A stretch of 64,000 nucleotides of DNA from Cirrosporium novae-zelandiae (GCA_026023565.1 JAPETS010000009.1:62001-126000); one strand, 5' to 3'. Positions 1 to 20,188 are shown, counted from the stretch's first letter. Notes: generated by a model not told the origin, from the letters alone. Translations and numbers: made by a program.

Positions 1-654
1 ATGGATAAACTAGGTTCTTTCTTTTTTTCTCGTCTGTTTAGGGAGAGAAAAGAAAGAGGGAAACTTGTGGATATCTCATGTATATAACTTGCAACTTAAT
101 ACCCTTATTCGAAATATAATTCCTACCTAGCTGGGTTTATACCAACTTGACTTTTCGTACATGCTTGTTCGTGTACTTCTTAGGCGTGTAAGCAAATATT
201 GGCTAGAATACTGAAGTAGTTGAGATGTCTTGGGGTTTACTGTGTCCTGTATTATCTTTGCATGTCAGGAATCTGGATGGTGTAGGACTGTAAATTTAAA
301 TTCCCGAGGATAAGAAAAATTTTACCGTCTATTAATTTTTGGTCGGTTGTTTTAGCTGCTGCTTGATTTGATAAGCTCTTGACGCTTCTGTCATCTTACT
401 TCTTTGGGATTGTCCATAAAATAATCCGTTGACGCATTTTCATTCGTTTCATATCATCATTATTAACAGTAGCCCGGAATTTTCCAAAAGGGTTGTGGAA
501 TATTCAATCTATCAGTCACGCAGTTTGGAACGCCTTATCGCGTATATCTCTTATTTCCCTTGACAAAAATCACCAACTCAGGATCATAAGTTGTAGCTGA
601 AAGTTCTTCTCGACCTGAGCATACACGCGCAATTTACTTAAATTAGTAGTATCT

Positions 655-1524
655 TCATCTCAATGCAGGAAAATAGTTTTGCTTGATGAATCCCTTCTTA
701 TTCTTCTTTGTCTTAGTTCCAGGCTTCTCACGAAGCCCAAACATGACCCATTGCCCTGGCCTATGTCCAAAACGAGCGTGAGTATCCTCAGCTGTAGGTA
801 CATGTGAAGATCGTTTGGTGAAGCGGCGGAAGAACTCATTGAGAATACTAGTCCTGGTTCTCTTGATCTCGGTGGATCCAGATGAGGTTGATGGTAAGGA
901 TTCACAAGTATTGTCGATGATTTTGGTTGAGATGGCGGATTGAATATGAAGAAGAGATTTGGCCGTAGGTTCTAATGCTGGGAGATAAAGGCTGGTCCAG
1001 GGGTTTTGATGAAGTTCGTCGTAGATGCTGCTTAGTGTAGGGAGGTTAGTGATGGTAAGCGTGGCTGTCTCGATTGAAGAGGGAGCGAGACACGTTGAAT
1101 CAGAGCTTGATGAGGTCGAGGACTCGGAAGAGATACTTTCAGTCGATGATCCAATCGTAAGATTCTTTTCCGTGACCTTTGAAGAGCAGACGGATATGGA
1201 CCTAGAAAGCATCCCTCGAATAGGCGCGCAGATATCTTGCCAGACGTCAATATCATAGAAACTTGGAGGTGCAAGTGTCTCTAGGAACGAGCACCTGTAG
1301 CCTCCTGATAGGACCTCTTTTGCATGTTCCTCGAGAGGATTATCTATTTCCTTCCAACTGCAAAGGATCAATCCGCATTTTGGACATTTGGCGCCATCGT
1401 CACATACATGAGACCAATGAATAAACCCAGCGACAGCCATAGATTCCCTGGCTGGTTCTCTGTGAGGCCATTGGGAGAAGGTTGAGAGGCGTAGTTTGTA
1501 GTGTATGAAATCGATACTTTCCAT
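655..1524 (-). CDS. Intronless single-BIR-domain (IAP-repeat) protein with Ser/Thr-rich linker and basic C-terminus
   Basis: RLSTFSQWPH...MAVAGF...CPKC-x16-H-x10-C(SFL) matches the BIR zinc-binding signature. First ATG is at 1524 (the ORF track starts at a non-ATG codon, 1542). Confidence 0.75.
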   Translation of the reverse strand: MESIDFIHYKLRLSTFSQWPHREPARESMAVAGFIHWSHVCDDGAKCPKCGLILCSWKEIDNPLEEHAKEVLSGGYRCSFLETLAPPSFYDIDVWQDICAPIRGMLSRSISVCSSKVTEKNLTIGSSTESISSESSTSSSSDSTCLAPSSIETATLTITNLPTLSSIYDELHQNPWTSLYLPALEPTAKSLLHIQSAISTKIIDNTCESLPSTSSGSTEIKRTRTSILNEFFRRFTKRSSHVPTAEDTHARFGHRPGQWVMFGLREKPGTKTKKNKKGFIKQNYFPALR

Positions 1525-2266
1525 GCCGTAACGTTGACACACGGTATATAAGGTTGGTTGGACGCGTAGAGGGTGCCTCGAGCTTGATAGTGGCTAGTTA
1601 TATAGTCAGCTTTCCTGTTGAAAATATAAGACAGGTTGAATAAATACCTTGAAAGAATTGCCAAGATCGAATAGCAGAACTGCCTATACGGTCTCATGCA
1701 GGAGTGGTGTCTTGAGCTCAAAGTTTTCTGACAGTTGATTCTTTATGGATGCCATCTGAAGGAACTTGAAGACACTTAGGTCCTGAGACTGTCGTGTCAG
1801 GTTCCCATTGACAGTGGGCCTAGTAAAGCGTATGCCGAGAGCAGTGGCCAACACAACGGTCTTTGTTCTATAGGGTCACTCATAGCCTTTGCGTTAGCTA
1901 CTAGATTAGCACAAATAACGGTTATGATTGCGATATTTTAATCTTTTACTGTCAGTTGGAGTGTTGGCAATGGTCACAATGAGCAAGCGGGCCATAGACA
2001 GAAATGTTCAACAGTGTATTGAAGGTAGAGGGCAATTAACCAAAACTGGTGCTGATATTCAACACTCATTCTGTGTGAAGATATTTCCAGCGTAGCAATA
2101 GGTAATAATAGGCATCATATGCTGAAAGCCAGCATTAATCCAGGATTCGATTACGTAGATCTCATCGTCACAAGGTTTCCCTGAGCCAGTTGTACAATGC
2201 AGTACAAGATCACGTGGTTTAGGAACATCATGCATCCCCCTGAAAATCATAAAGGTGCAGTCGCTT

Positions 2267-2841: not shown

Positions 2842-5800
2842 ATGAATGAAGCAGATGAGGTAGGACGGGTGTTTCAAGAAGCCCATAAAAAATTTCTCGA
2901 TTCGATAGCGGAAGATGAACGTAGCAAATTTTCCAAATGTTCATCCGCAGAAGACCTTCTCGCCGACGTCTCACGATTATTAGCAATATTAAAGGAGAAA
3001 CGGCGAGGTAAGAGAATGTTGAAGCAGATCAAACACCTGAGCGACAGTCTCCAGCCATATTTTAAAGTGATCGAAATCTTTGTGCAATGCAAACCAGAAT
3101 GGATTTCCCTAGCGTGGGGGGCCTTTCGCCTTGTTCTCTTGGTATGGATATCCTTTCAATATCCTTTTCTCTGAATAAGGCATTTCTAAACGATACCTTC
3201 TTGGTACAAATTGCGTCGAATTTTATCACCTTCTTTGAGAAGTTAGTCAACTATGTCGAACGGATCTCTTTATCATTGCCTCAATGTCAGGATGCTCTTC
3301 AACTGTCACAGGGAGATACCTCCCCAAGATTAAAACAGTCTCTTGTTAGGGTATATACCGATTTGTTCGAGTTTTTCAGAATTGCTGCAGGCGTCTTTAC
3401 AAAAAAAAAAAACGGCAGTAAGTATATTCTTTGGGAGAGAGATGATTGAATATCTTTTGACTCTGTCAGAAATTAAGAGGGCACCTGCCATCATTGGAGA
3501 TCTGTTTTGGAAGCCATTCGATGTTCGTTTTGGAGAAGTCTTGCCCGGATGGAATTTAATAAAAAATTGGTCGATGACGAGTTACTGCTTGATCAGTGCC
3601 GACAATCTAACGATGCCAGAAGGGCTTCATTCGAGGAACACTGCAAGAACGAATGTGCAAGACAAAAAGCTATAGAAGCCGCCCAGGAAGGGCATGAGCT
3701 ATTAGCAGAAGTGAAGAGAGCATTCGAAGAAGAACAACTAGGTTCGTTGGACTCATGGGTACTTGATTGCACCTATGGAAAATTATTAACTGTTCAAATT
3801 TAAAATTGCAGACCGAGTATACCATCGATTGCGGTCCTGGGTTTCTCCGCCAGCTTTCATGCAAGAATTTGAACGGGCGCAGGATCTTCGTGACGAAGGT
3901 ACAGCAATGTGGCTTTTCAATACACCTAGGTTCCATTCGTGGAACTCACCCTGCAAAGATTGCAATGGCAATAGAGATAAAGAGGCTTTCCTCTGGGTCC
4001 ATGGTTCTCTCTATTTCCTCTTGAACCAGACAGAATATTTTCTGACATACAATAGGGAATCCAGGCTGTGGGGAAACAGTACTTGCAGCATCTGCAATAG
4101 AGAAATTGAGAGACTCTGGAAATCGCAAAGAAAGATCAGATCGTATGGTCTGCTACTTTTTCTTTAATCAAAATTCGTCTGAGCAATTCTCTAGCTTTGC
4201 TGCATATAGGGCCTTCCTTTCACAGATACTCCAACGCTTTCGAAAGGATGACACCATTCGTACTAGAATTTCCTTTGCTATGACCCAAGAATCTGAAGGT
4301 CAGATTACTGCATCCAGAGCAGAAACATTTGGTCTCCTTCAGCTCTGTTTGCAAGACATCCAAAATGCTTTCTTGGTTTTGGATGCGGTCGACGAATGCG
4401 AAGACAATGGTGATCTTGTCAATGATCTTAAACGATTAAGTCAGATCTCGACTGTGCATATCTTGCTCTTCAGCCGTCCAGTTGTGGAAGTCCTTCACCG
4501 AGCAATATCTACTGCGGGACGTTATGTTATTGAGAAGCACTCGGTCAATCAAGACATCAAAGTATATCTTCAAAACAGAGTACAACTACTGAAAAGCGAT
4601 CAGCTTCTACCTCAATATTGTGATATCGCCCAGCTTGTTGCTCGCCTGCTTCAAGGTGCTGATGGGATGTTTCTTTGGGCACGTCTAATGATAGCCTATC
4701 TCAACTCTCCTATTTTATCCTCGGCGGAACGAATTGATCCCACTCAGCAGATCAATTTACCAGAGGGTTTAGAGCAAATGTACTGCAAAATGGAAAGTTT
4801 GGTGGGGAGAAGCTACGTAGCAGAGCAAAATATGGCCCGACGCGCTTTCCTATGGCTCAACTATTCAGATGCTACCCTTACATGCCAGCAACTTCACCTG
4901 GCTATGGCTTCCGAGTCAAACCACGCTGAAAATAGGCCATTCAAAGAGTTCTCTCATGCCATTGTCATGGCTTGTGCCGGTCTTGTTGAAGTGTATCCTC
5001 TAATTGATGATGACATAGGATCCAAATGTGTTTTCCGTTATATCCATATCTCAGTGAAGGACTATCTCCGGACCCCGGGAAAACAGGCTGGAGACAGCCA
5101 AACACAAGAGGCACCAATATTTTTCACTAAAATTCAAGCTAACCTTCAGATCGCGAGGAGCTATCTAGCTTATTCAATATTTCAAATGCCTGCCCAGCCA
5201 CTATCGGGAATTCTAGGCAAGGAGGCTCGGCATGAAGAGTTAACTGCATCTTTTCCATTGCTTCAATTAGCTTCAACTACTTGGATCACGTACCTCTGCA
5301 GGTATCCTCGTTGGGCATATCTTTCCTCCAAAGATCGCTTAATTAGCAAGCTATTCGAAGAGTTTATGTCAATGCTTGAAAGGTTTATGTCACTGAAATT
5401 TGTGGTGATGGCATGGATTGAAGCATGGTATACGCTCTCTCTAGCTATTAACTTTCCTTCATTCGCCGAGTTGAGAGGTTGGGTGGATAGTTGCAAACAG
5501 TCAAGTACAGAACGCCAAAACGTCTACCGAGATCTTTCAGATTTCAGCGCCGATCTCGACATGATACATAATTCATGGCGGACAACTCTTTTCCAAAGAC
5601 CTCACGAGATCTGGGGAGATGTTACTGCATTTTCCCAAAGCCGGTTCTTTGCTCGAACCTCTACTCTACGTGTAACCTCATTCCCTCCGACCAAATCTAA
5701 AAAAGAACAAAGCTCGCAGCCTCTAGCGACCATATCCAAAGTTGAGCCGAATGGCAAAGAAATTGGGGTTCTTTCCGCGTGGCCGTCCTTGTAAGTCAGG

Positions 5801-7453
5801 TTTTAAGATTCATGGCTGGATTCACTGTTAACTAAACCTAGCGCATATGAACAACTTTGTCGAGACACGAGGAGCTACTCCTCGCCGTCCGAAATATATC
5901 ACGTATGCGCTTAGTGGGAACTACGATATAAGATATCGCAGACCGATAGAGAGCAAAGATTCATTGCCGCTGTAACGATCCCGCTTGAGGAATTCGAAAT
6001 ATGGCTACTTCTCTGGCAGGCATTACAACCTAAAACTTGGAAGTTAATATTTCCGATGACCATCAGCAATGATCTTTTAAAGTTTACCGCCATGAGAAAT
6101 ATCTTTATGTTGAGGCGCGAGCAGTTTGATCCAGTGCGAGAGATCAACTATACTTCTCTGACCCTGCCATTAGATTTTGATGAACATTTAAGGTCTAACT
6201 GGTCTGATGCAAGGACGGGATCTCAATTCCTCCACGAAAGATCTTTCCCGCTTTTCCCTGGACTTGTTTGCCCTGACCTTTATGAGTATGGCATTTTGAT
6301 AAGTCCTAATGGTCAATTCGTTCTCTTTTACGACGATGACCATAGCCTCCGCCCCTATAACTCTCGCTTTGAACCAGTTTTCATTAAATCATACTTTGGA
6401 GCAATTCTCGATAACCTTTCTTTTCTCGCCGTTTATCAGCTCAACACCGACACTCCGAGCTGTGGAAGCCGGCTCGTTAATAGCCTTCCAATACATTCCG
6501 AGAAAGGTTTCTGCAGACGAAAGTGTTTTTTTCACCCATTCGGTCCCGTGATTGGTTTCATCCAAAATTCAACCGTCCAATTATGGAACTTCAAAACAGG
6601 TAAGCATAGATGAATGCAACGATCTAAAGCAAACCGTCTTTATACTAACATCAGTACAGAGTTTATCTGCCAGGTTTATGAAAAATATCTCTTCGAATAC
6701 ATAATGAGCAGAGACTTTTCAGCCTGCGGAAAATATATTGTCATCAACATAACCGGGAGCAGGCCGCCCGTTACTATTCCAGTAGACCATTATATTCTAG
6801 GCGACGAAACAGAACATGTCTCAAACCTTGCTCAAACTATCTCTACAGCCTCCCAAAGCTTAGACCCCAAGCCGGAAATATCACGTTTGACCGACAGCAG
6901 TAGGTGTGATGCCCTTGCTCTGCTAGCTAGCCAAACATTGTCTACCAGAGATAACACTGTCATCCACGGACAAAATCAGGAGGTACTCATCAACAACCCC
7001 CAACTAAATAGTATCGACCTAAAACACCCAACGGACGCGATTTCCCCCCTAAGGCTTCCACGAGAAATACGAGGAGCAGATACTACAACCATAGCCCGAT
7101 TCCCAGAATCCATACATGAAAATATTAAAATCACTGTGAATGCAGCCGCAAAGCCATTTTATCAAATAACAGAACGTCCCAATTCATTGCTGCCAGCCCT
7201 CGTCGAACGGGACCCGCGAAGTCTCCTGCTTGAACAAGGGGCGGCTGGACCGGCCTCATCTTCTTTGATAAATCAGAAGGAGGAACCCCTCCAGAAACTT
7301 CTAGACAAGCTTCCGCTACTCTACGAAGACACCCTTGACCCTCTCACATCCTTGGATACTGGGCAGAAGGAATTAGAAACTGGACTTGGCTTTGAGAGAT
7401 ATCAGCTTATATCTGGGCAAGGCAATAGTCACGATACAGAGGAAGACTTCTGA
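2842..7453 (+). pseudogene. Fungal NLR-like STAND gene (N-terminal helical domain + NACHT + degenerate WD40-like C-terminus), disrupted
   Basis: Spliced reading gives PEWISLAWGAFRLVL, GTAMWLF, LWVHGNPGCGETVLAA (Walker A), VCYFFF, FLVLDAVDEC (Walker B), ILLFSRP, ADGMFLWARL, LPEGLEQMY and YIHISVKDYL. WD-like remnants follow (ISPNGQF, TVQLWNF, FSACGKY). Lesions: frameshift ~3541, Walker A K->E at 4073-4075, in-frame TAG at 5912-5914, probable dead acceptor at 3207-3209. Confidence 0.8.
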
Positions 7454-13260: not shown

Positions 13261-16200
13261 TTAATAATCATCCTCTTCCTCTTCTTCTTCATCATCATCA
13301 TCATATCTAGCGCTCATTGACCCATCCTTCGGTCTCCCTGCACCTTGAGGAGATGGTGAAATATACCTGATATCGTCCGTGTATTGCCTAGGGTTTTCAG
13401 CACGGAAAAATGGAGCGTCTGGACTTGGCCAGGAAGCTCCTCCATAGGTTGATCTCTGGGAATTCCGGTACGTGTTCTGATTTGCGCTATCCGATGGATT
13501 ATATTGGTCTCCCGTGGATCGCAATCCGCCCCTCTGTGAAGGTGAAGGTGAAGGAGTAGCATTGGGCACAAAATGATCATACTGAGGGGACTCCCGTTGT
13601 TGTACTGTGGGATTAGTGTCCAAATACTGGTAGGAAGCGTGTCCAGACCTAGGTTGAGGCCGTCTCTGATACGGCTGCTGTGGCATTGGCCCTCCCGATC
13701 TATAGCTGTCTATTGCCGTTGTCTCAAACACATTCGTTACTCCAACTTGGTCGGCTCTTTCTTGGCGGTGCCATGCCCGGTCGACAGCTGTATGACCGGT
13801 GGTCTTTGTTATATAATGGTCGAATTGTTGAGATGCCCTGGCGACTATCTCGAAATGCATTCTCTCTAACTTGGGCAGGATGGGGGGGATGTCTTCCGGT
13901 GCCTCTGTCTTGCTGCGTTTGATGTTCGCTTCAGCAGCATCGAATTCTGCCAATGCTGTAGCCGTCTGGAAAGCATTTCGAATTTGTCGTCCATTCCAGC
14001 GCGAGTCCTTGGTCCCGCCATTTTCATACTGCTCTCGGGCAAATTGCTTTATCATTGGCACGTCAATGATCATTCTTTGCCCTTTTCTCTGCATCAGCCG
14101 GTCCAGATTCATCGCCCATATTTTCATTGTCTGCATTCGATCGAGTGGAGGATAATAAAGACTTATATGAATTCGGGACGTGAAGGCTTCGTCAAATGCC
14201 CCAACTCTGTTTGTGGTTAGAAACAATATCCCAGTATAATACTCAAGCACTCGTAGGAACACTAGAAGCATTAGTTGGATCTCTGATGTTGGTTCCGCCT
14301 GAATGGTAAGTGCTCACCCGAAACGAGACTATTGCGCTTAATGTCTGTTCTATCCCTTTCAGCAAGAAATACATCGGCTTCGTCTAATAAGAGTACACAA
14401 TTCCATCTTTGTGCCAGATGGAATTTTTCGTCAAGCTCTCTCTCAACATGCTCAGCATCCAGACCCAGGTCGCCTGTAGTTGTTAGTGAGAGGAATCCTT
14501 TCACCTATGACAGCCGTCACATCATTTAACATACCGCAAGTAATCGGTAGAAGGAGTTTACCATTCGCGTCGGCGACACATTCTGGCAGTAAAAGATCAT
14601 CGAGTTAGCATCTGCACTCCTATTTTGGCCTATTATGACGAACCAGCTGTAGAAGTCTTGCCGACTCCAGGAGCACCATGGAGGAGAATAATAAGGCCAT
14701 TTCCTAGGAAATATTAACCAAGCTATCACCACCAGCGTTAATTAAATAATTACCTTTCCCGCGAACTAAATCAGCTTCATAGTCATCATTAGTATATTTT
14801 TCTTGAAAAGCTTTAGCCATGAAATGGCTTTTGACCAACGCCTGCACCATCCTCTTATGCCCTTTGGGCAGTTTCAAGCCATTGAATCCATCTTTTCGCG
14901 GCCTAACCTCCCGAAGGTCACTGATACTTAGCTGGGCTTCAGTATGTAAGCACTTATCCCTGGAAAGTTTTGAGTCTCTGTCTCACCGAATTTGCGAGTC
15001 CGCAGGATATATGCGAAAACGCGAGTAGGCAGCAGTATTAGATCTTCAGTTTGTAATATGCTAGCATCATTTGTACGGTTTTCCCACATATTTTTCAAGA
15101 TAGCATTCTGCTCGATGAAATCATTTGTTTGTGTTCTGTCCGTTAAATAATCATAGTCAAAGTACCAGGGTTCTTCCGAGTTATGCTCCTGTTGGTAACG
15201 GTTTTTCCAGAGTCTGGCTCCGAAATCATTAATAGTCTCCCTCGGATCCGCCCCGAGGAAGTTAAGGGAATCAAAAACTGGTATCCAGTCAGGATTGGTT
15301 TGAAAAGCCTCACTGAAATCAACAACGACGTGGCTATCAATATACTCGGAGTGCTTCGGCGCCTTTTCTCCCTCAAGTAGCGATCCACAAGGATGACGAA
15401 CAAGACTCCTTCCCACGTAATATCTAGGTTTGAAGCTTGTGAAATTCAAAAACTCTTTACCGTTTTCTATAAGGTTGGTCTTGATCTTGGATATATTCTC
15501 CGAGTACCGCAATGGATAGACTTCGAGAGAAGTTATATCTTTCTCGCCTTCAAAAGGCTGGAGTGGGAAAGTGTGTGCGACTGGACCAAACTCTCTACCA
15601 TCAAAATCCAAATGATAGCATTTGACAAAAAATGGGTTTATTCTCTCTCTTTTTTTCAAACTCTCCGGGTCATCGTCGTCGTTAGTGTTCAGAACTAGGC
15701 GCCCATTTGCCGTATGCAAAACTCGCCAAACTTCTTGATACCTCTCATTATGAATGTCCGATACTGATGGCTCAGTCGAGTTTCCTGCGGCTGTATTTCT
15801 GGATTTGGGGTCTTTATCTTGGCCGTTGTTACCCAGGGGCACATAAACGACCTCTCCTGGTTTGAAAAGATACCATAGATCTGCGAATCTCACCTTGCGG
15901 TTCTTGTTATCACGGTACTTATTTTCAATCGGCTTTAAGTACTCGTCTATAAACTCAAGGAGACAACGAATATCTTGCATGGTATCTGGACTATCTAAAA
16001 GATCTTCTGGCATGGCATCGACCTCAGTATTCACTGGGGTGGTTTTCTCATCGCTGTTAGAGGATGCTTCTCCTGACTCGGCCGACTTCGTAAGGTCACT
16101 CTCGTTGGTAGGCTCGCTTGCTTTATTTAATTCGTTATTTGCAGAACGCTCGAGGGAGCTTCCGCCTACAACTGTCGTGGTATCTCCAGTTTGGGGCTCA

Positions 16201-17171
16201 TCTGTCAAATCGTCCTGAGACGTTGAATGATTAGTGGGCCCGTCCCTTTTTTCTTCTAGTCTCTTTAAGTGGGCCCGTAGGGCATTCTCCGCAACAAAGA
16301 ACTTCTTAAAGGGCGCTACAAAAAGAGTCGGTATTGGGGCATATTTACCGATATCGGCAATTTCGAATAATTTAAAAATCCCTGGAGAATTCACAAGTAC
16401 GGCATAAGCGCTGCCTGGCTTTGTGGAATCGGATTTCATGCTTGCGTCATTTTTTTCTTCATCTTCTATATCACTATAGGACCTCGGACTTTTTGTTTTG
16501 TCTTGTTCTCTATACCCAACCGACGGTTTTTCGATAAGGATTTGGAGAGTGTAAACACGGTTCTCGTCCACCAATTTGTTCTTGAAATCAAACCATTTCA
16601 ATCGTAGAGCTTTCCTGATCCGAATCTTTTCTTTGTCTGCCTTTTTATTGGCACTTTTCAGCGAGTCATCACCCCCTTCAACCTTTAGTAGTTTAGCTTC
16701 CAAAGAAGCTACACGTTCCTCCATCAGTTGAAGGTAGTCTGCGTATTGTTTGACTTGTTGTGCTGTTTCACTTATAGAATCTTCACTGGTCTTCTCCGTT
16801 ATCTCTTGACTGTTTTCTTTTTCTGTTGCAAGGCTAGCCTTGTCCTCGCCATTGCTGGGTTGTGTTTTGCCCTTCGCCTTGTTTTGGTCAGACTGATTAT
16901 TCTTAAGCCCATCAATGTTATCTTCGTTGGGCTTGGGGTCTCCGGGTTGAGAATATCAGTATTGAAGGTTCTCTCATCTTCAAAAGATTAGCTAACCTAG
17001 ATCCTCTAGCGAAGACCTCCCCGACAAGCTACATTCGACTGAGAATTGGGGTTTCGCGGATTCCAGTAAGGAGGTTTCGTTCAGATAGGTCTGATTTCCA
17101 AGCTCCTCAAGCTCCGATCTAGTCGTCTTCTTCTCCTTGTCGTCAACAGTGTTCGGACCACTGATAGTCAT
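13261..17171 (-). CDS. Large fungal AAA+ ATPase (long N-terminal region, single AAA domain, low-complexity Q/P/S/Y tail ending in a D/E run)
   Basis: Multi-exon. Motifs: FADLWYLFKPGE, DFDGREFGP, KDITSLEVYPL, DLVRGKG-NGLIILLHGAPGVGKTSTAE (Walker A ~14651-14680), CVLLLDEADVFL (Walker B), VFLRVLEYYTGILFLTTNRVGAFDEAFTSRIH, WNGRQIRNAFQTA. The first exon boundary is approximate. Confidence 0.9.
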
Positions 17172-17897
17172 TAGTACACTTGACAAATGCTGGGCAATGA
17201 AGGTTATACGCAATCTGTATAAGCGGTTCGTCCATCATTACTGTGCAGTAATAACTAGTGAAGCCCTTTCAGAGAGGTGTTTATCTTATGGCAAGGATCG
17301 AATATATTGCAATTTATAGCCACAGCTCACAGAGTTTGTTGAGGACAATAAAGGTGAGAGTGAAGGAAATCTACTTTCATGGGTTGATATTGCGAAGGCA
17401 AGGCTGAGCAGCCAACTCATAATTATGCAAAATAGCATGCATGAACTACTGAAGCTAAGCGAGATCCTTGTACTATCGAATCAGCAATCAAGTAGAAAAG
17501 GACTAGAGCTAAATATATTTACCCAATAGCTATTTTCGACGAATGAGATGTCCGGGTGTAGAATCCTCAAAGGCCGGCTAACACTTTCTATGGACTCAAG
17601 GGTAAGCAAATGGTCAACTTATACAGGGATAAAGCATATTAGCGTAGTAATTATTCAGAATTTTCACGGCTTATCGGTTAGATATAAGACGTTGGGCTAC
17701 TCAGCCTTGCTCGATTAGTGGTTGGAGAATCCGCGAGCCACAGTTAGGGTCAAAACATTAGATCATTAAATACAGTCGTAGTCATACTATTTAAGCTTTG
17801 GCTCACGATAGAAATACAGCGGTAGGGAATCTATTTCAAAGTCTCGCGCAAATAAATGACAGCATTTCATCTTCTAGGTAATCACTGATAGCACAAA

Positions 17898-20188
17898 ATG
17901 TCGGACTTATCATATGTTCCCTCGCAACTGGGACGAAAATTAGCAAGGACTTATGTTGACGAAAACGCCGAAGACCTACATAAAGCCTTTGCTACACCAA
18001 CCCAATACGACGAGCAACGTGCCCAATATAAAGCAAAAGGGCCTATCAAGTGCGTCATATATTTCTATGCGCTAGGATCTTTCAATGGGGATCTTATCAG
18101 GCCAATTGATTCTAATAACCGGCAGTAATGACAAGCTTCGGGTTGGCACAGACCAGTTCTTCTCAGTCATGGAAGCATACCAAAAATGTACCAAAGACGA
18201 GTCTTCCGCCAGTTTCAACATCCGCAATAAGCATGGATGGGACGAAGTTATCAGAGAAGCAAGGAGGGCAGAGCAAAAGTACAATGATGCTTGTAGAGGG
18301 CGGAAACTGTTCAGATTCAGTGGTGACTACGCAGCTGCGATAAGCCCGTTCTTCAAGTTGATCCCAAGCACGGAGTATACGTCGGTTCTGTGTGGGGGAT
18401 TGGCATTGATATTTGGGGTAGGTAGGCCTCGACGACAATGTAAGATTTCATAACTGAGAATGCCACAGATCGCGGCTCGTCTCAGCCAGAAACGGCTTGA
18501 AATCCTACAAGCCCTGAAAGACGTGCCTGACACCATTGAGATGGCAGAAAAATGTCTAGAAAAATTTCCCAGTGACTTAAAACTCAGAGATATTAACATT
18601 GAGCTCTACCTTTCAATCCTCAGCGCTCTCGAAAGCATAATTGAATGGTTGGTTGACAGCCCATTTCGTAAGACCTTTGGCGAAAATATCCTTCGAACAG
18701 GACTAAACCATCACAGGTAAAACTATCAGAGCTGCATTCAAGGGGAAGTTTCAAGAAAGAGCACTGGACGAACGAATCCAGGAGATTAACTCCCAGGTTC
18801 TCACTTTGCAACACCACTACCATGACTTACTTCATAAAACAGTCATCCAGACAGAGGCCACAGCCAGGAGGACTGAATTAAAGTTGGACAATGTTAAGGA
18901 TATAACAGTATCCACTCAACATCAAATAAAATCTGTGGGAACAGATATACAATTAGGTGTTGTCAAGGTTGATTCAAAAGTTTCGAGGGTTTTGGAAGAG
19001 GCCACCTGGCTGAAAGAGTCCCATAATGCATTGACGATTCGGATTACAGATATGCAAAAGGTGATCGATGCTCAGGAGGGACAGGGAGTTGAGGCCAAGA
19101 ATTCACTTCAAGGCTTCCTCCAAGAACAAATCCGTTTTGCAGCATGTATGGACATTCCCAGTCATTAATATCTCATCGTCATATGCTAAAGAACTATAGG
19201 GAACATTAAGAAAGATATCAGTGCCGAGTTTGAACGTCGAAGTCCTATCCCTTCCTTTAGGCCCCTAATTACCCATGACCAGCTAGTCACCCTGTTGGCG
19301 GCAAACCCGGCTATAACGGATCACGACCTCCAGACCGTCATAAGGGAGGGGCATAGAATAGACCTCGATTCCCAAAACCGAGTTCAATGGCTAATGAAAT
19401 GCACAACTTTCCAGGCTTGGTTAGGTTCGAGAAACGCCCAGGTGCTTCTTGTAGATGGCAACTCAACTTCCAGGACTCTAGGACGAGAATCGGAAATGTC
19501 GTTGCTGTGCGCTATGCTAGTCCAAAGCCTGTCCGGAATACCACTTTCTATGCCAATCCTATTCTTTTGCGGTTTGCATACCGATGACGAGAGTGATGCT
19601 CTTGCTGGACCTAGTGGACTAATCAGAAGTTTGATCACCCAACTTCTCCATGTCCACACCTTCAATCTGGGTTTCATAAGCACGCGCAGGCACAGAGACC
19701 AAATAAATAGTCTGCAACTTGAACATCTTTGTGAACTTTTCTCCACCCTTGTCAGCACATTGCCCGTCGATACCGTCGTATTTTGTATGATCGATGGAAT
19801 TTCATTCTACGAGAATGATCAATGGCAAGCTGGTCTTTGCTTCATTATCCAGAAGCTCCAAGAGCTCGCTGACGACGAATCCATCAATGCCATATTTAAG
19901 CTGTTAATCACGACTCCGTTGATGAGTAGGTATGTCGAATATCAGATCGATCCGCAGGACCGGTTGACGATGCCGAGGAACATAGGTGGTCCAACATATG
20001 GTTTAACAGAGCGGAGCATGGCCATGGATACAAGACAGGCAATGGAACAAATGCCCTTAAACCTTTGGGTGGAGCAACAGGATCCCAACTTTGCAGCCGA
20101 GCGCGAGAATATTCGGTATATGGACGAAGGATATGGCGATCAGGATGTTGACGATAGACTCAGTGATGAGTCTGTAGAGATATTCTAG
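17898..20188 (+). CDS. NACHT-like protein with degenerate P-loop: helical N-terminus + coiled coil + truncated NTPase domain
   Basis: Five exons joined by GT-AG introns. Motifs: SVLCGGLALIFG, coiled coil at 18806-19145, FQAWLGSRNAQVLLVDGN (no GxxGxGKS/T), PILFFCGLH, GPSGLIRSLITQLL, VFCMIDGISFYE (Walker B-like) and FKLLITTP. Confidence 0.75.

Follow-up and report, generated by a model that had tools for sequence, protein, structure and literature searches.

A co-inherited, divergent two-gene module of Pezizomycotina pairs a DUF7025 AAA+ ATPase with an NLR-like protein lacking a canonical Walker A motif

A 64,000-nucleotide stretch of the genome of Cirrosporium novae-zelandiae (GCA_026023565.1, JAPETS010000009.1:62001-126000; hereafter the window, in whose own numbering window positions are given) carries two protein-coding genes that diverge from a short spacer. 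One specifies an AAA+ ATPase with intact catalytic motifs (deposited protein P0020; 13261..17235, minus strand), and the other a partner protein (deposited protein P0001; 17898..20188, plus strand) that resembles the leading two thirds of a fungal NOD-like receptor (NLR; NOD, nucleotide-binding oligomerization domain). Our comparison of homologous loci identifies the pair as a conserved, co-inherited, and divergently arranged two-gene module of Pezizomycotina, which has very probably been selected as a unit. A functional coupling in which the ATPase serves as an ATP-driven switch or remodeler of the partner, most likely in cell death or defense, is on balance probable.

The head-to-head arrangement had been proposed from the window alone (hereafter the sequence-only reading), and the gene positions given there held. 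The AAA+ gene, delimited by Pfam and tblastn with the start ATG read from the DNA, is interrupted by several introns and specifies 1196 amino acids. Its stop codon lies at 13261-13263 and the ATG of the deposited model at 17235-17233, which differs from the ATG chosen in the sequence-only reading (17171-17169); tblastn places P0020 on 17174-13264. Start codons are spaced by 662 bp in the deposited models and by 726 bp on the alternative AAA+ start, the latter matching the claimed spacer of ~730 bp. The partner gene comprises five exons (17898-18049, 18126-18417, 18469-18667, 18717-19145, and 19200-20188), whose splicing yields an in-frame, stop-free reading, as had been claimed, equal to the 686-residue P0001 in length and junction residues. 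The divergent intergenic region (17236..17897) presumably acts as a bidirectional promoter. Shared spacers measure ~0.4-1.2 kb across pair loci, and 11 of them contained no conserved k-mer, the best 7-mers and 8-mers being no better than those of shuffles.

Three of the four checks that the sequence-only reading had set beforehand were run, namely linkage of homologues, congruence of the gene trees, and departure of the partner from neutral evolution, and the pair passed all three. Linkage was counted from partner loci toward the AAA+ gene on metagenome contigs scanned with a partner-family motif; the pattern matched 53 times, and 35 loci were confirmed. A P0020 homologue was found by tblastn in 18 of the 35, in every case immediately upstream of the partner and on the opposite strand; no homologue was detected downstream or elsewhere in the 35 loci. 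Among the 17 loci without an AAA+ match, 14 offer at most ~1.5 kb of upstream DNA and three more than 5 kb. Once near-identical contigs are grouped by sequence, 11 distinct loci remain whose upstream flank measures 3 kb or more, and 10 of them are linked (L004, L005, L008, L010, L011, the L015 group, L018, L023, the L029 group, and L035). L024 is a case of partial linkage, in that a fragment of an AAA+ gene lies where its contig ends. The three contigs with long flanks and no AAA+ gene (L001, L002, and L027) represent one locus type, the sole distinct assessable one that is unlinked. Its partner copy (L001:9228-10846, L002, L027:6146-7747) starts directly after a GMC oxidoreductase gene and is 5'-truncated, with the first half of the N-terminal domain missing.

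The linked loci share the domain content of the window's pair at considerable divergence. Pfam assigned DUF7025, AAA, and lid domains to the upstream gene in 9/9 linked loci scanned, and the family hidden Markov model (HMM) placed a Goodbye-like domain ahead of the degenerate NOD (pseudo-NOD) in every linked locus. Identity to the window's copies is 30-43% in the pseudo-NOD and 36-44% in the AAA+ protein. None of the eight other open reading frames (ORFs) of the window that flank the pair matches any locus (E<=1e-5); the remaining flanking genes vary from locus to locus and specify an ABC transporter, a permease, a P450, a GH16 protein, and a cellobiose dehydrogenase, among others.

Evolution of the two genes follows the same course. 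In maximum-likelihood trees of 11 pairs, six of eight internal splits are common to both genes, a number that none of 10,000 label permutations reached, and each discordant split has weak support in one tree or in both. Pairwise distances of the two genes correlate with r = 0.82 (Mantel, 0/10,000). There has thus been no exchange of the AAA+ gene between partner loci. Two contigs with the JAABUP prefix (L020 and L031, belonging to the L015 and L029 groups) carry diverged pairs that are sisters in both trees, which suggests either duplication of the pair as a unit or the joint sampling of two related fungi. A broader tree of AAA+ proteins shows the linked copies interleaved with named sequences of Glonium, Arthrobotrys, Orbilia, Nemania, and others. 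Adjacency and orientation are thus kept over distant lineages while other neighbors change and the trees agree, which is how we define a two-gene cluster operationally.

The partner is also under purifying selection. The ratio of nonsynonymous to synonymous substitution rates (dN/dS) was taken from the three partner pairs with most substitutions, since pairs with few substitutions or a saturated dS are less informative, and amounted to 0.205 for L008/L011 (dS 0.41), 0.071 for L010/L012 (dS 0.60), and 0.214 for L023/L032 (dS 0.31). The AAA+ genes of L008/L011 gave 0.204 (dS 0.59). These values bear on an alternative according to which a DUF7025 AAA+ gene from an abundant family lies by chance next to a decaying NLR fragment. 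NLR decay does happen in this region, as the sequence-only reading had pointed out: an NLR-like gene ~10 kb away (4046-7453) contains several in-frame stops. Chance adjacency is nonetheless contradicted by linkage in 10 of the 11 distinct assessable loci, by the congruent trees, by partner dN/dS of 0.07-0.21, and by the intact partner reading frame, identical to the deposited model. Moreover, no DUF7025 match other than those in pairs occurs in ~235 kb of nonredundant sequence (11 representative loci plus the window). We judge this explanation refuted.

The sequence-only reading had described the partner as truncated, a term that proved misleading, since the short form is the norm of a large family. 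A profile search of 1.84 billion representatives retrieved 4294 family clusters at E<=1e-3, 2551 at 1e-10, and 1215 at 1e-30. The 19 homologues found first, all of 609-758 amino acids, lack a canonical Walker A in the place of the phosphate-binding loop (P-loop). Their source names are those of ascomycetes, lichen-forming and otherwise, among them Alternaria, Aspergillus, Penicillium, Nemania, Diaporthe, and Orbilia, and they have in common the motifs LLVDG[NH]...S.MS..CA, FFCGLHT, GPSGLIRSLI.QLL, C[IV]IDGIS.[YF]E, and FKLL.TSP. The best 150 representatives span 258-791 amino acids, the longer ones matching mostly near end to end. A canonical Walker A occupies the P-loop place in only one of the 163 members read (P0075), and in the 104 of these that a rough regular expression caught, the place equivalent to the Walker lysine holds Arg in 51 and Lys in 29. 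Short architecture and degenerate P-loop are thus family-wide and point to selection rather than decay, as had been proposed for the P-loop. From the sequences, P-loop loss seems to be graded across the family.

Two observations on the family stand apart from this argument. The same genome holds a second member (P0052, M1834_003629, 694 amino acids) on another contig, of 560,349 bp. An acidic C-terminal tail was considered as a family-wide degron and dropped; it is present in only 24 of 127 full-length members.

The AlphaFold model of P0001 has a mean predicted local distance difference test score (pLDDT) of 72 and comprises a helical N-domain up to residue ~230, a coiled coil (231-370), and an alpha/beta domain (383-640) in which pLDDT is mostly 80-94. 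The N-domain (~residues 1-230; 17898..18760, plus strand) is provisionally assigned as Goodbye-like/DUF7708 from PF24809, the Atlas comparison, and the family HMM, the profiles that recognize this domain in fungal STAND proteins (STAND, signal transduction ATPases with numerous domains) being PF24809 and PF17109. DUF7708 (PF24809) matches residues 133-248 marginally below threshold (24.7 bits, cut-off 25, E 2.4e-5); it is included in the precomputed Pfam annotation of P0001 and matches 7 of the 19 family members at E<=0.01. In the Atlas, the clusters closest to the N-domain carry DUF7708, Goodbye, and NACHT_N (score 0.93-0.94, 195-203 shared features), domains with which fungal STAND proteins begin, and relatives bear the database name "Fungal STAND N-terminal Goodbye domain-containing protein". 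The long coiled-coil region that follows (~residues 231-370; 18761..19240, plus strand) consists of model helices 231-295, 303-333, and 338-370; a profile search of the PDB with the partner returned weak coiled-coil matches only.

The C-terminal part of P0001 adopts, by Pfam and fold search, a nucleotide-binding fold of STAND/NACHT type with a degenerate P-loop (19382..19912, plus strand). NPHP3_N (PF24883) matches residues 419-595 with 34.4 bits against a cut-off of 24.8, and also matches 15 of the 19 family members. With VIA-align, the pseudo-NOD (residues 383-625) is closest to Avs3 (8dgc; Z 12.7, root-mean-square deviation 3.5, 193 residues aligned), followed by ORC/Cdc6 (Z ~12), ZAR1 (10.9), CED-4 (9.6), and Apaf-1 (9.1), with NRC2 within Z 9-11. 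Foldseek on the whole partner model gave weak matches to ORC/Cdc6, MalT, and ZAR1, and the wide VIA-align search was clearer. All NACHT-scaffold motifs quoted in the sequence-only reading are present in P0001, and its statement that GxxGxGK[ST], a winged helix, and repeats are missing was borne out by sequence and Pfam. Where GxxxxGK[ST] would be expected, the window protein has VDGNSTSRTLGRESEMS. The P-loop vestige VLLVDGNSTSRTLGRESEMS (19439..19501, plus strand) is built of a strand, a 12-residue loop, and a helix, with Arg at the place of the Walker lysine; the loop, GNSTSRTLGRES, follows strand 438-443 and holds no GxxxxGK[ST].

Further nucleotide-sensing positions may also deviate. Canonical NACHT domains have a Walker B in which hhhhD precedes acidic residues, of the form DGxDE, and, behind strand 4, a sensor-1 Arg of the form TSRP. 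D556, which closes strand 550-556 of P0001, is invariant in the family (CxIDGIS), and the next acidic pair is replaced by S..E, the equivalence being set by model position. Strand 589-596 ends in TTP/TSP with no Arg, a sensor-1 equivalence likewise read from model position, without alignment to a solved NACHT. BLASTP and hhalign against the neighboring NLR ORF, and the PDB profile search, gave no usable alignment of the pseudo-NOD to a canonical NACHT. P0001 terminates 91 residues beyond the NPHP3_N match, shortly after the fifth strand. Pfam found neither a winged helix nor repeats in P0001, and no repeat family in any of the 19 members; the WD40, ANK, TPR, or HEAT repeats and the winged-helix/helical NOD extension of a tripartite NLR are therefore absent from P0001. 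With Walker A, repeats, and NOD extension all missing, the partner counts as an NLR derivative and not as an NLR.

The AAA+ protein shows the reverse condition. P0020 carries DUF7025 (PF22942), AAA (PF00004), and AAA_lid_13 (PF23232) in this order, which, together with intact catalytic motifs, defines a DUF7025 AAA+ ATPase. DUF7025 maps to 15501..15917 on the minus strand (E 3.4e-25, residues 347-485 of ORF 14928-16955). The AAA core, recognized by its Walker A, Walker B, sensor 1, and Arg motifs and by fold search, and AAA_lid_13 (E 1.2e-20) occupy 13795..14703 on the same strand, interrupted by short introns. The motifs that the sequence-only reading had called intact are all found in P0020: GAPGVGKT (residue 785), LLLDEAD (839), LTTN (878), and TSRI (891). 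The protein starts with a disordered N-terminus and a short coiled coil, continues with the DUF7025 N-domain, a classical AAA module, and the lid, and ends in a disordered acidic tail. Its model has a mean pLDDT of 57, with a folded N-region (375-765), the AAA module (780-1030), and a disordered tail. Among PDB entries, P0020 comes closest by sequence to Rix7, Msp1/ATAD1, and VCP-like ATPases (E 1.6e-8 at best) and by fold to p97, Pex1/6, ATAD1, and Rix7 (Z 8-9.8). The wide fold search matched mainly residues 712-1015, and for the DUF7025 N-domain the Atlas comparison yielded no usable match.

All 17 readable linked AAA+ genes retain the catalytic motifs Walker A, Walker B, TTN, SR[IV], and WNGRQI[RK]N. 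The partner, for its part, is probably unable to switch itself with nucleotide, which suggests that the neighboring AAA+ protein may supply the ATP-driven step. In the mechanism that we favor, the AAA+ protein would bind the partner, probably through its DUF7025 N-domain, and would remodel or unfold part of it. This remodeling would set oligomerization of the partner via the coiled coil and the pseudo-NOD, as well as exposure of the Goodbye-like domain, with a regulated cell-death or defense response as the most likely outcome. Both the adaptor or substrate role of the partner and the link to cell death we infer from domain kinship only. We lean toward the AAA+ protein triggering rather than restraining the partner, by analogy to fungal gasdermins and their neighboring proteases. 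A more specific version, which we offer tentatively and regard as somewhat less probable than its negation, is that of a split NLR: the nucleotide switch of a Goodbye-like executioner would have been handed to the neighboring AAA+ protein, with DUF7025 as the sensor or adaptor.

The opposite direction of control deserves consideration, because the solved relatives of P0020 include the extractases or segregases Msp1/ATAD1, p97, Pex1/6, and Rix7. The partner might be a constitutively dangerous, membrane-active oligomer that the ATPase continuously disassembles or extracts, so that loss or inhibition of the ATPase would release death, following a guard or toxin-antidote logic. Tight linkage and co-inheritance are what a poison-antidote pair requires, and the only solo copy is truncated. 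However, no result indicates the direction of control, no drive-like or mobile-element signature surrounds the pair, and one partner allele (L026) appears intact with no AAA+ gene in the 1.4 kb of upstream DNA available. We consider this scenario improbable.

Alternatively, the two genes might merely be co-regulated from a shared bidirectional promoter, perhaps as members of one pathway or in one condition such as stress or defense, and their products might not interact; linkage would then persist because breaking the shared promoter is costly. This explanation is favored by the head-to-head orientation and the short spacer seen at each of the 18 linked loci and by the lack of any motif common to both proteins (best BLASTP E 0.59; hhalign probability 0.1%). 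Against it, adjacency holds down to 30-43% protein identity with all other neighbors changing, and the sole distinct copy without an AAA+ gene is also 5'-truncated. The complementarity of the two proteins, with NTPase motifs lost in the partner and kept in each of the readable AAA+ copies, also argues for more than a shared promoter. We regard co-regulation by itself as unlikely, if less so than a continuously restrained toxin.

Several observations weigh against the coupled module as we present it. In threading AAA+ unfoldases, a pore-1 loop of the pattern aromatic-hydrophobic-Gly lies between the two Walker motifs. The stretch that we take to be this loop, by its position between the two motifs rather than by superposition (window ~14560-14600, minus strand; P0020 residues 806-822), is GDLG or GDIG both in the window and in all but one of the 17 readable linked copies, the exception being L023 with ANIG. 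With GD[LI]G and no aromatic residue, the place so assigned does not match that of a threading unfoldase, which weakens the unfolding detail of the mechanism. A minority of the partner family (P0014, P0016, P0050, P0075, P0137, and others) has GK[ST] in a lengthened loop, so some members may still bind nucleotide. Congruence of the trees is equally expected from plain vertical co-descent of neighbors and by itself is no proof of interaction. Every linked locus is a metagenome contig. The L026 partner allele is 99.2% identical to that of L024, and the DNA upstream of the two is unrelated (L024:1-1012 vs L026:1-1418), L026 having there a 454-residue ORF (139-1503, plus strand) with no Pfam match; the difference may come from contig chimerism, from an insertion, or from polymorphism in presence or absence. 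Finally, among named genomes, Nemania is the only one common to the partner and AAA+ match lists, a weak check, as these searches were limited by word index. The Nemania sp. FL0916 matches, weak and at paralogue level, lie on separate contigs (614,899 vs 161,220 bp), and the closest named sources of partner homologues (Trizodia, Circinaria, and Sarea) were missing from the matches of the AAA+ search, which was word-limited.

Elsewhere in the window, the decayed-looking NLR-like gene mentioned above (plus strand) matches NPHP3_N with E 1.3e-21, and its Walker A reads GNPGCGET, with Glu at the lysine place. The window that holds this remnant and the pair also holds an ORF (655-1593, minus strand) in which a BIR (inhibitor of apoptosis) domain is recognized with E 1.1e-13. 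The segment 54001-58000 is unlike the remaining window in its low G+C content (0.38-0.42) and its strongly positive GC skew (+0.27 to +0.32).

Fungal NLRs have Goodbye-like domains as one of their most frequent N-termini. Dyrka et al. in 2014 (PMC4986451) reportedly described fungal NLRs that combine such domains with NACHT NODs. The partner resembles these proteins in its probable N-domain of the DUF7708/Goodbye/NACHT_N superfamily and its NPHP3_N fold, in the same order. It differs in its lack of a canonical Walker A, of a winged-helix/helical NOD extension, and of a WD40/ANK/TPR sensor, and in the insertion of a coiled coil of ~140 residues between these domains. The HeLo/MLKL bundle is membrane-attacking. 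According to passages of Wojciechowski et al. 2022 (PMC9815663), the four-helix-bundle core of Goodbye-like domains is common to them and HeLo/MLKL; their activation is stated there to be an open question, and a non-amyloid control is speculated upon. The pair provides a testable candidate for such activation, as an executioner-like protein without a switch or sensor of its own is tied to an intact ATPase.

As described in passages of a study of Sordariales, NLR calling there demands a nucleotide-binding domain plus C-terminal repeats (PMC12258605), so the partner family falls outside. Censuses that require repeats and a P-loop thus miss a family of >1000 sequence clusters. Passages of the same paper describe plant head-to-head pairs of sensor and helper NLRs, which are divergent, share a promoter, and divide labor, and call head-to-head NLR pairs rare in Sordariales, with 13 in 225 two-NLR clusters; they do not mention a pair of an AAA+ gene and an NLR-like gene. 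Both genes of the plant pairs are NLRs, whereas here a single gene is NLR-like and has no canonical Walker A. Full-text literature searches, which left subscription journals uncovered and could have missed genes listed in supplementary tables, retrieved no description of an AAA+/pseudo-NACHT pairing and no paper on DUF7025, DUF7708, or AAA_lid_13. The pair thus gives context to these three Pfam entries.

On the ATPase side, P0020 has the Walker A and B, sensor 1, Arg finger, sensor-2-like motif, and fold of classical-clade AAA+ proteins (Rix7/NVL, Msp1/ATAD1, p97, Pex1/Pex6). It departs from them in its single AAA module, its fungal-specific DUF7025 N-domain, its AAA_lid_13, and the GD[LI]G at the pore place.

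Two-gene logics are established in fungal cell death and immunity, in which an NLR is combined with an amyloid-templated HeLo protein or a gasdermin with a protease. HET-S/NWD2 pairs resemble the present one as adjacent genes that divide sensing or control from execution. In such pairs, a short amyloid motif is reportedly common to the NLR N-terminus and the effector C-terminus (PMC4344463). Here, the controller is not an NLR, and BLASTP and hhalign of the family profiles found no short motif common to the AAA+ protein and the partner, as an amyloid-signaling pair would have. The gasdermin/protease two-gene cluster is, by our comparison, the closest working analogy. Passages of Clave et al. 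2022 (PMC8851545) report a protease gene within 10 kb of 80% of 1,884 fungal gasdermin genes and propose that this neighbor activates the pore former. Like het-Q1/het-Q2, the pair places a putative membrane-attacking executioner beside an enzyme gene in a cluster that is kept in many fungi and co-evolves clade-wise. The enzyme here is an AAA+ ATPase instead of an S8/CHAT protease, and the putative executioner is a Goodbye-like protein with a pseudo-NOD instead of a gasdermin; activation by the neighbor is demonstrated in het-Q and inferred for the AAA+/partner pair. If the split-NLR version is true, the pair would provide the first function for DUF7025 AAA+ ATPases and a new, AAA+-gated class of fungal immune or cell-death systems, to be placed beside the amyloid-gated (HET-S/NWD2) and protease-gated (gasdermin/HET-Q2) ones.

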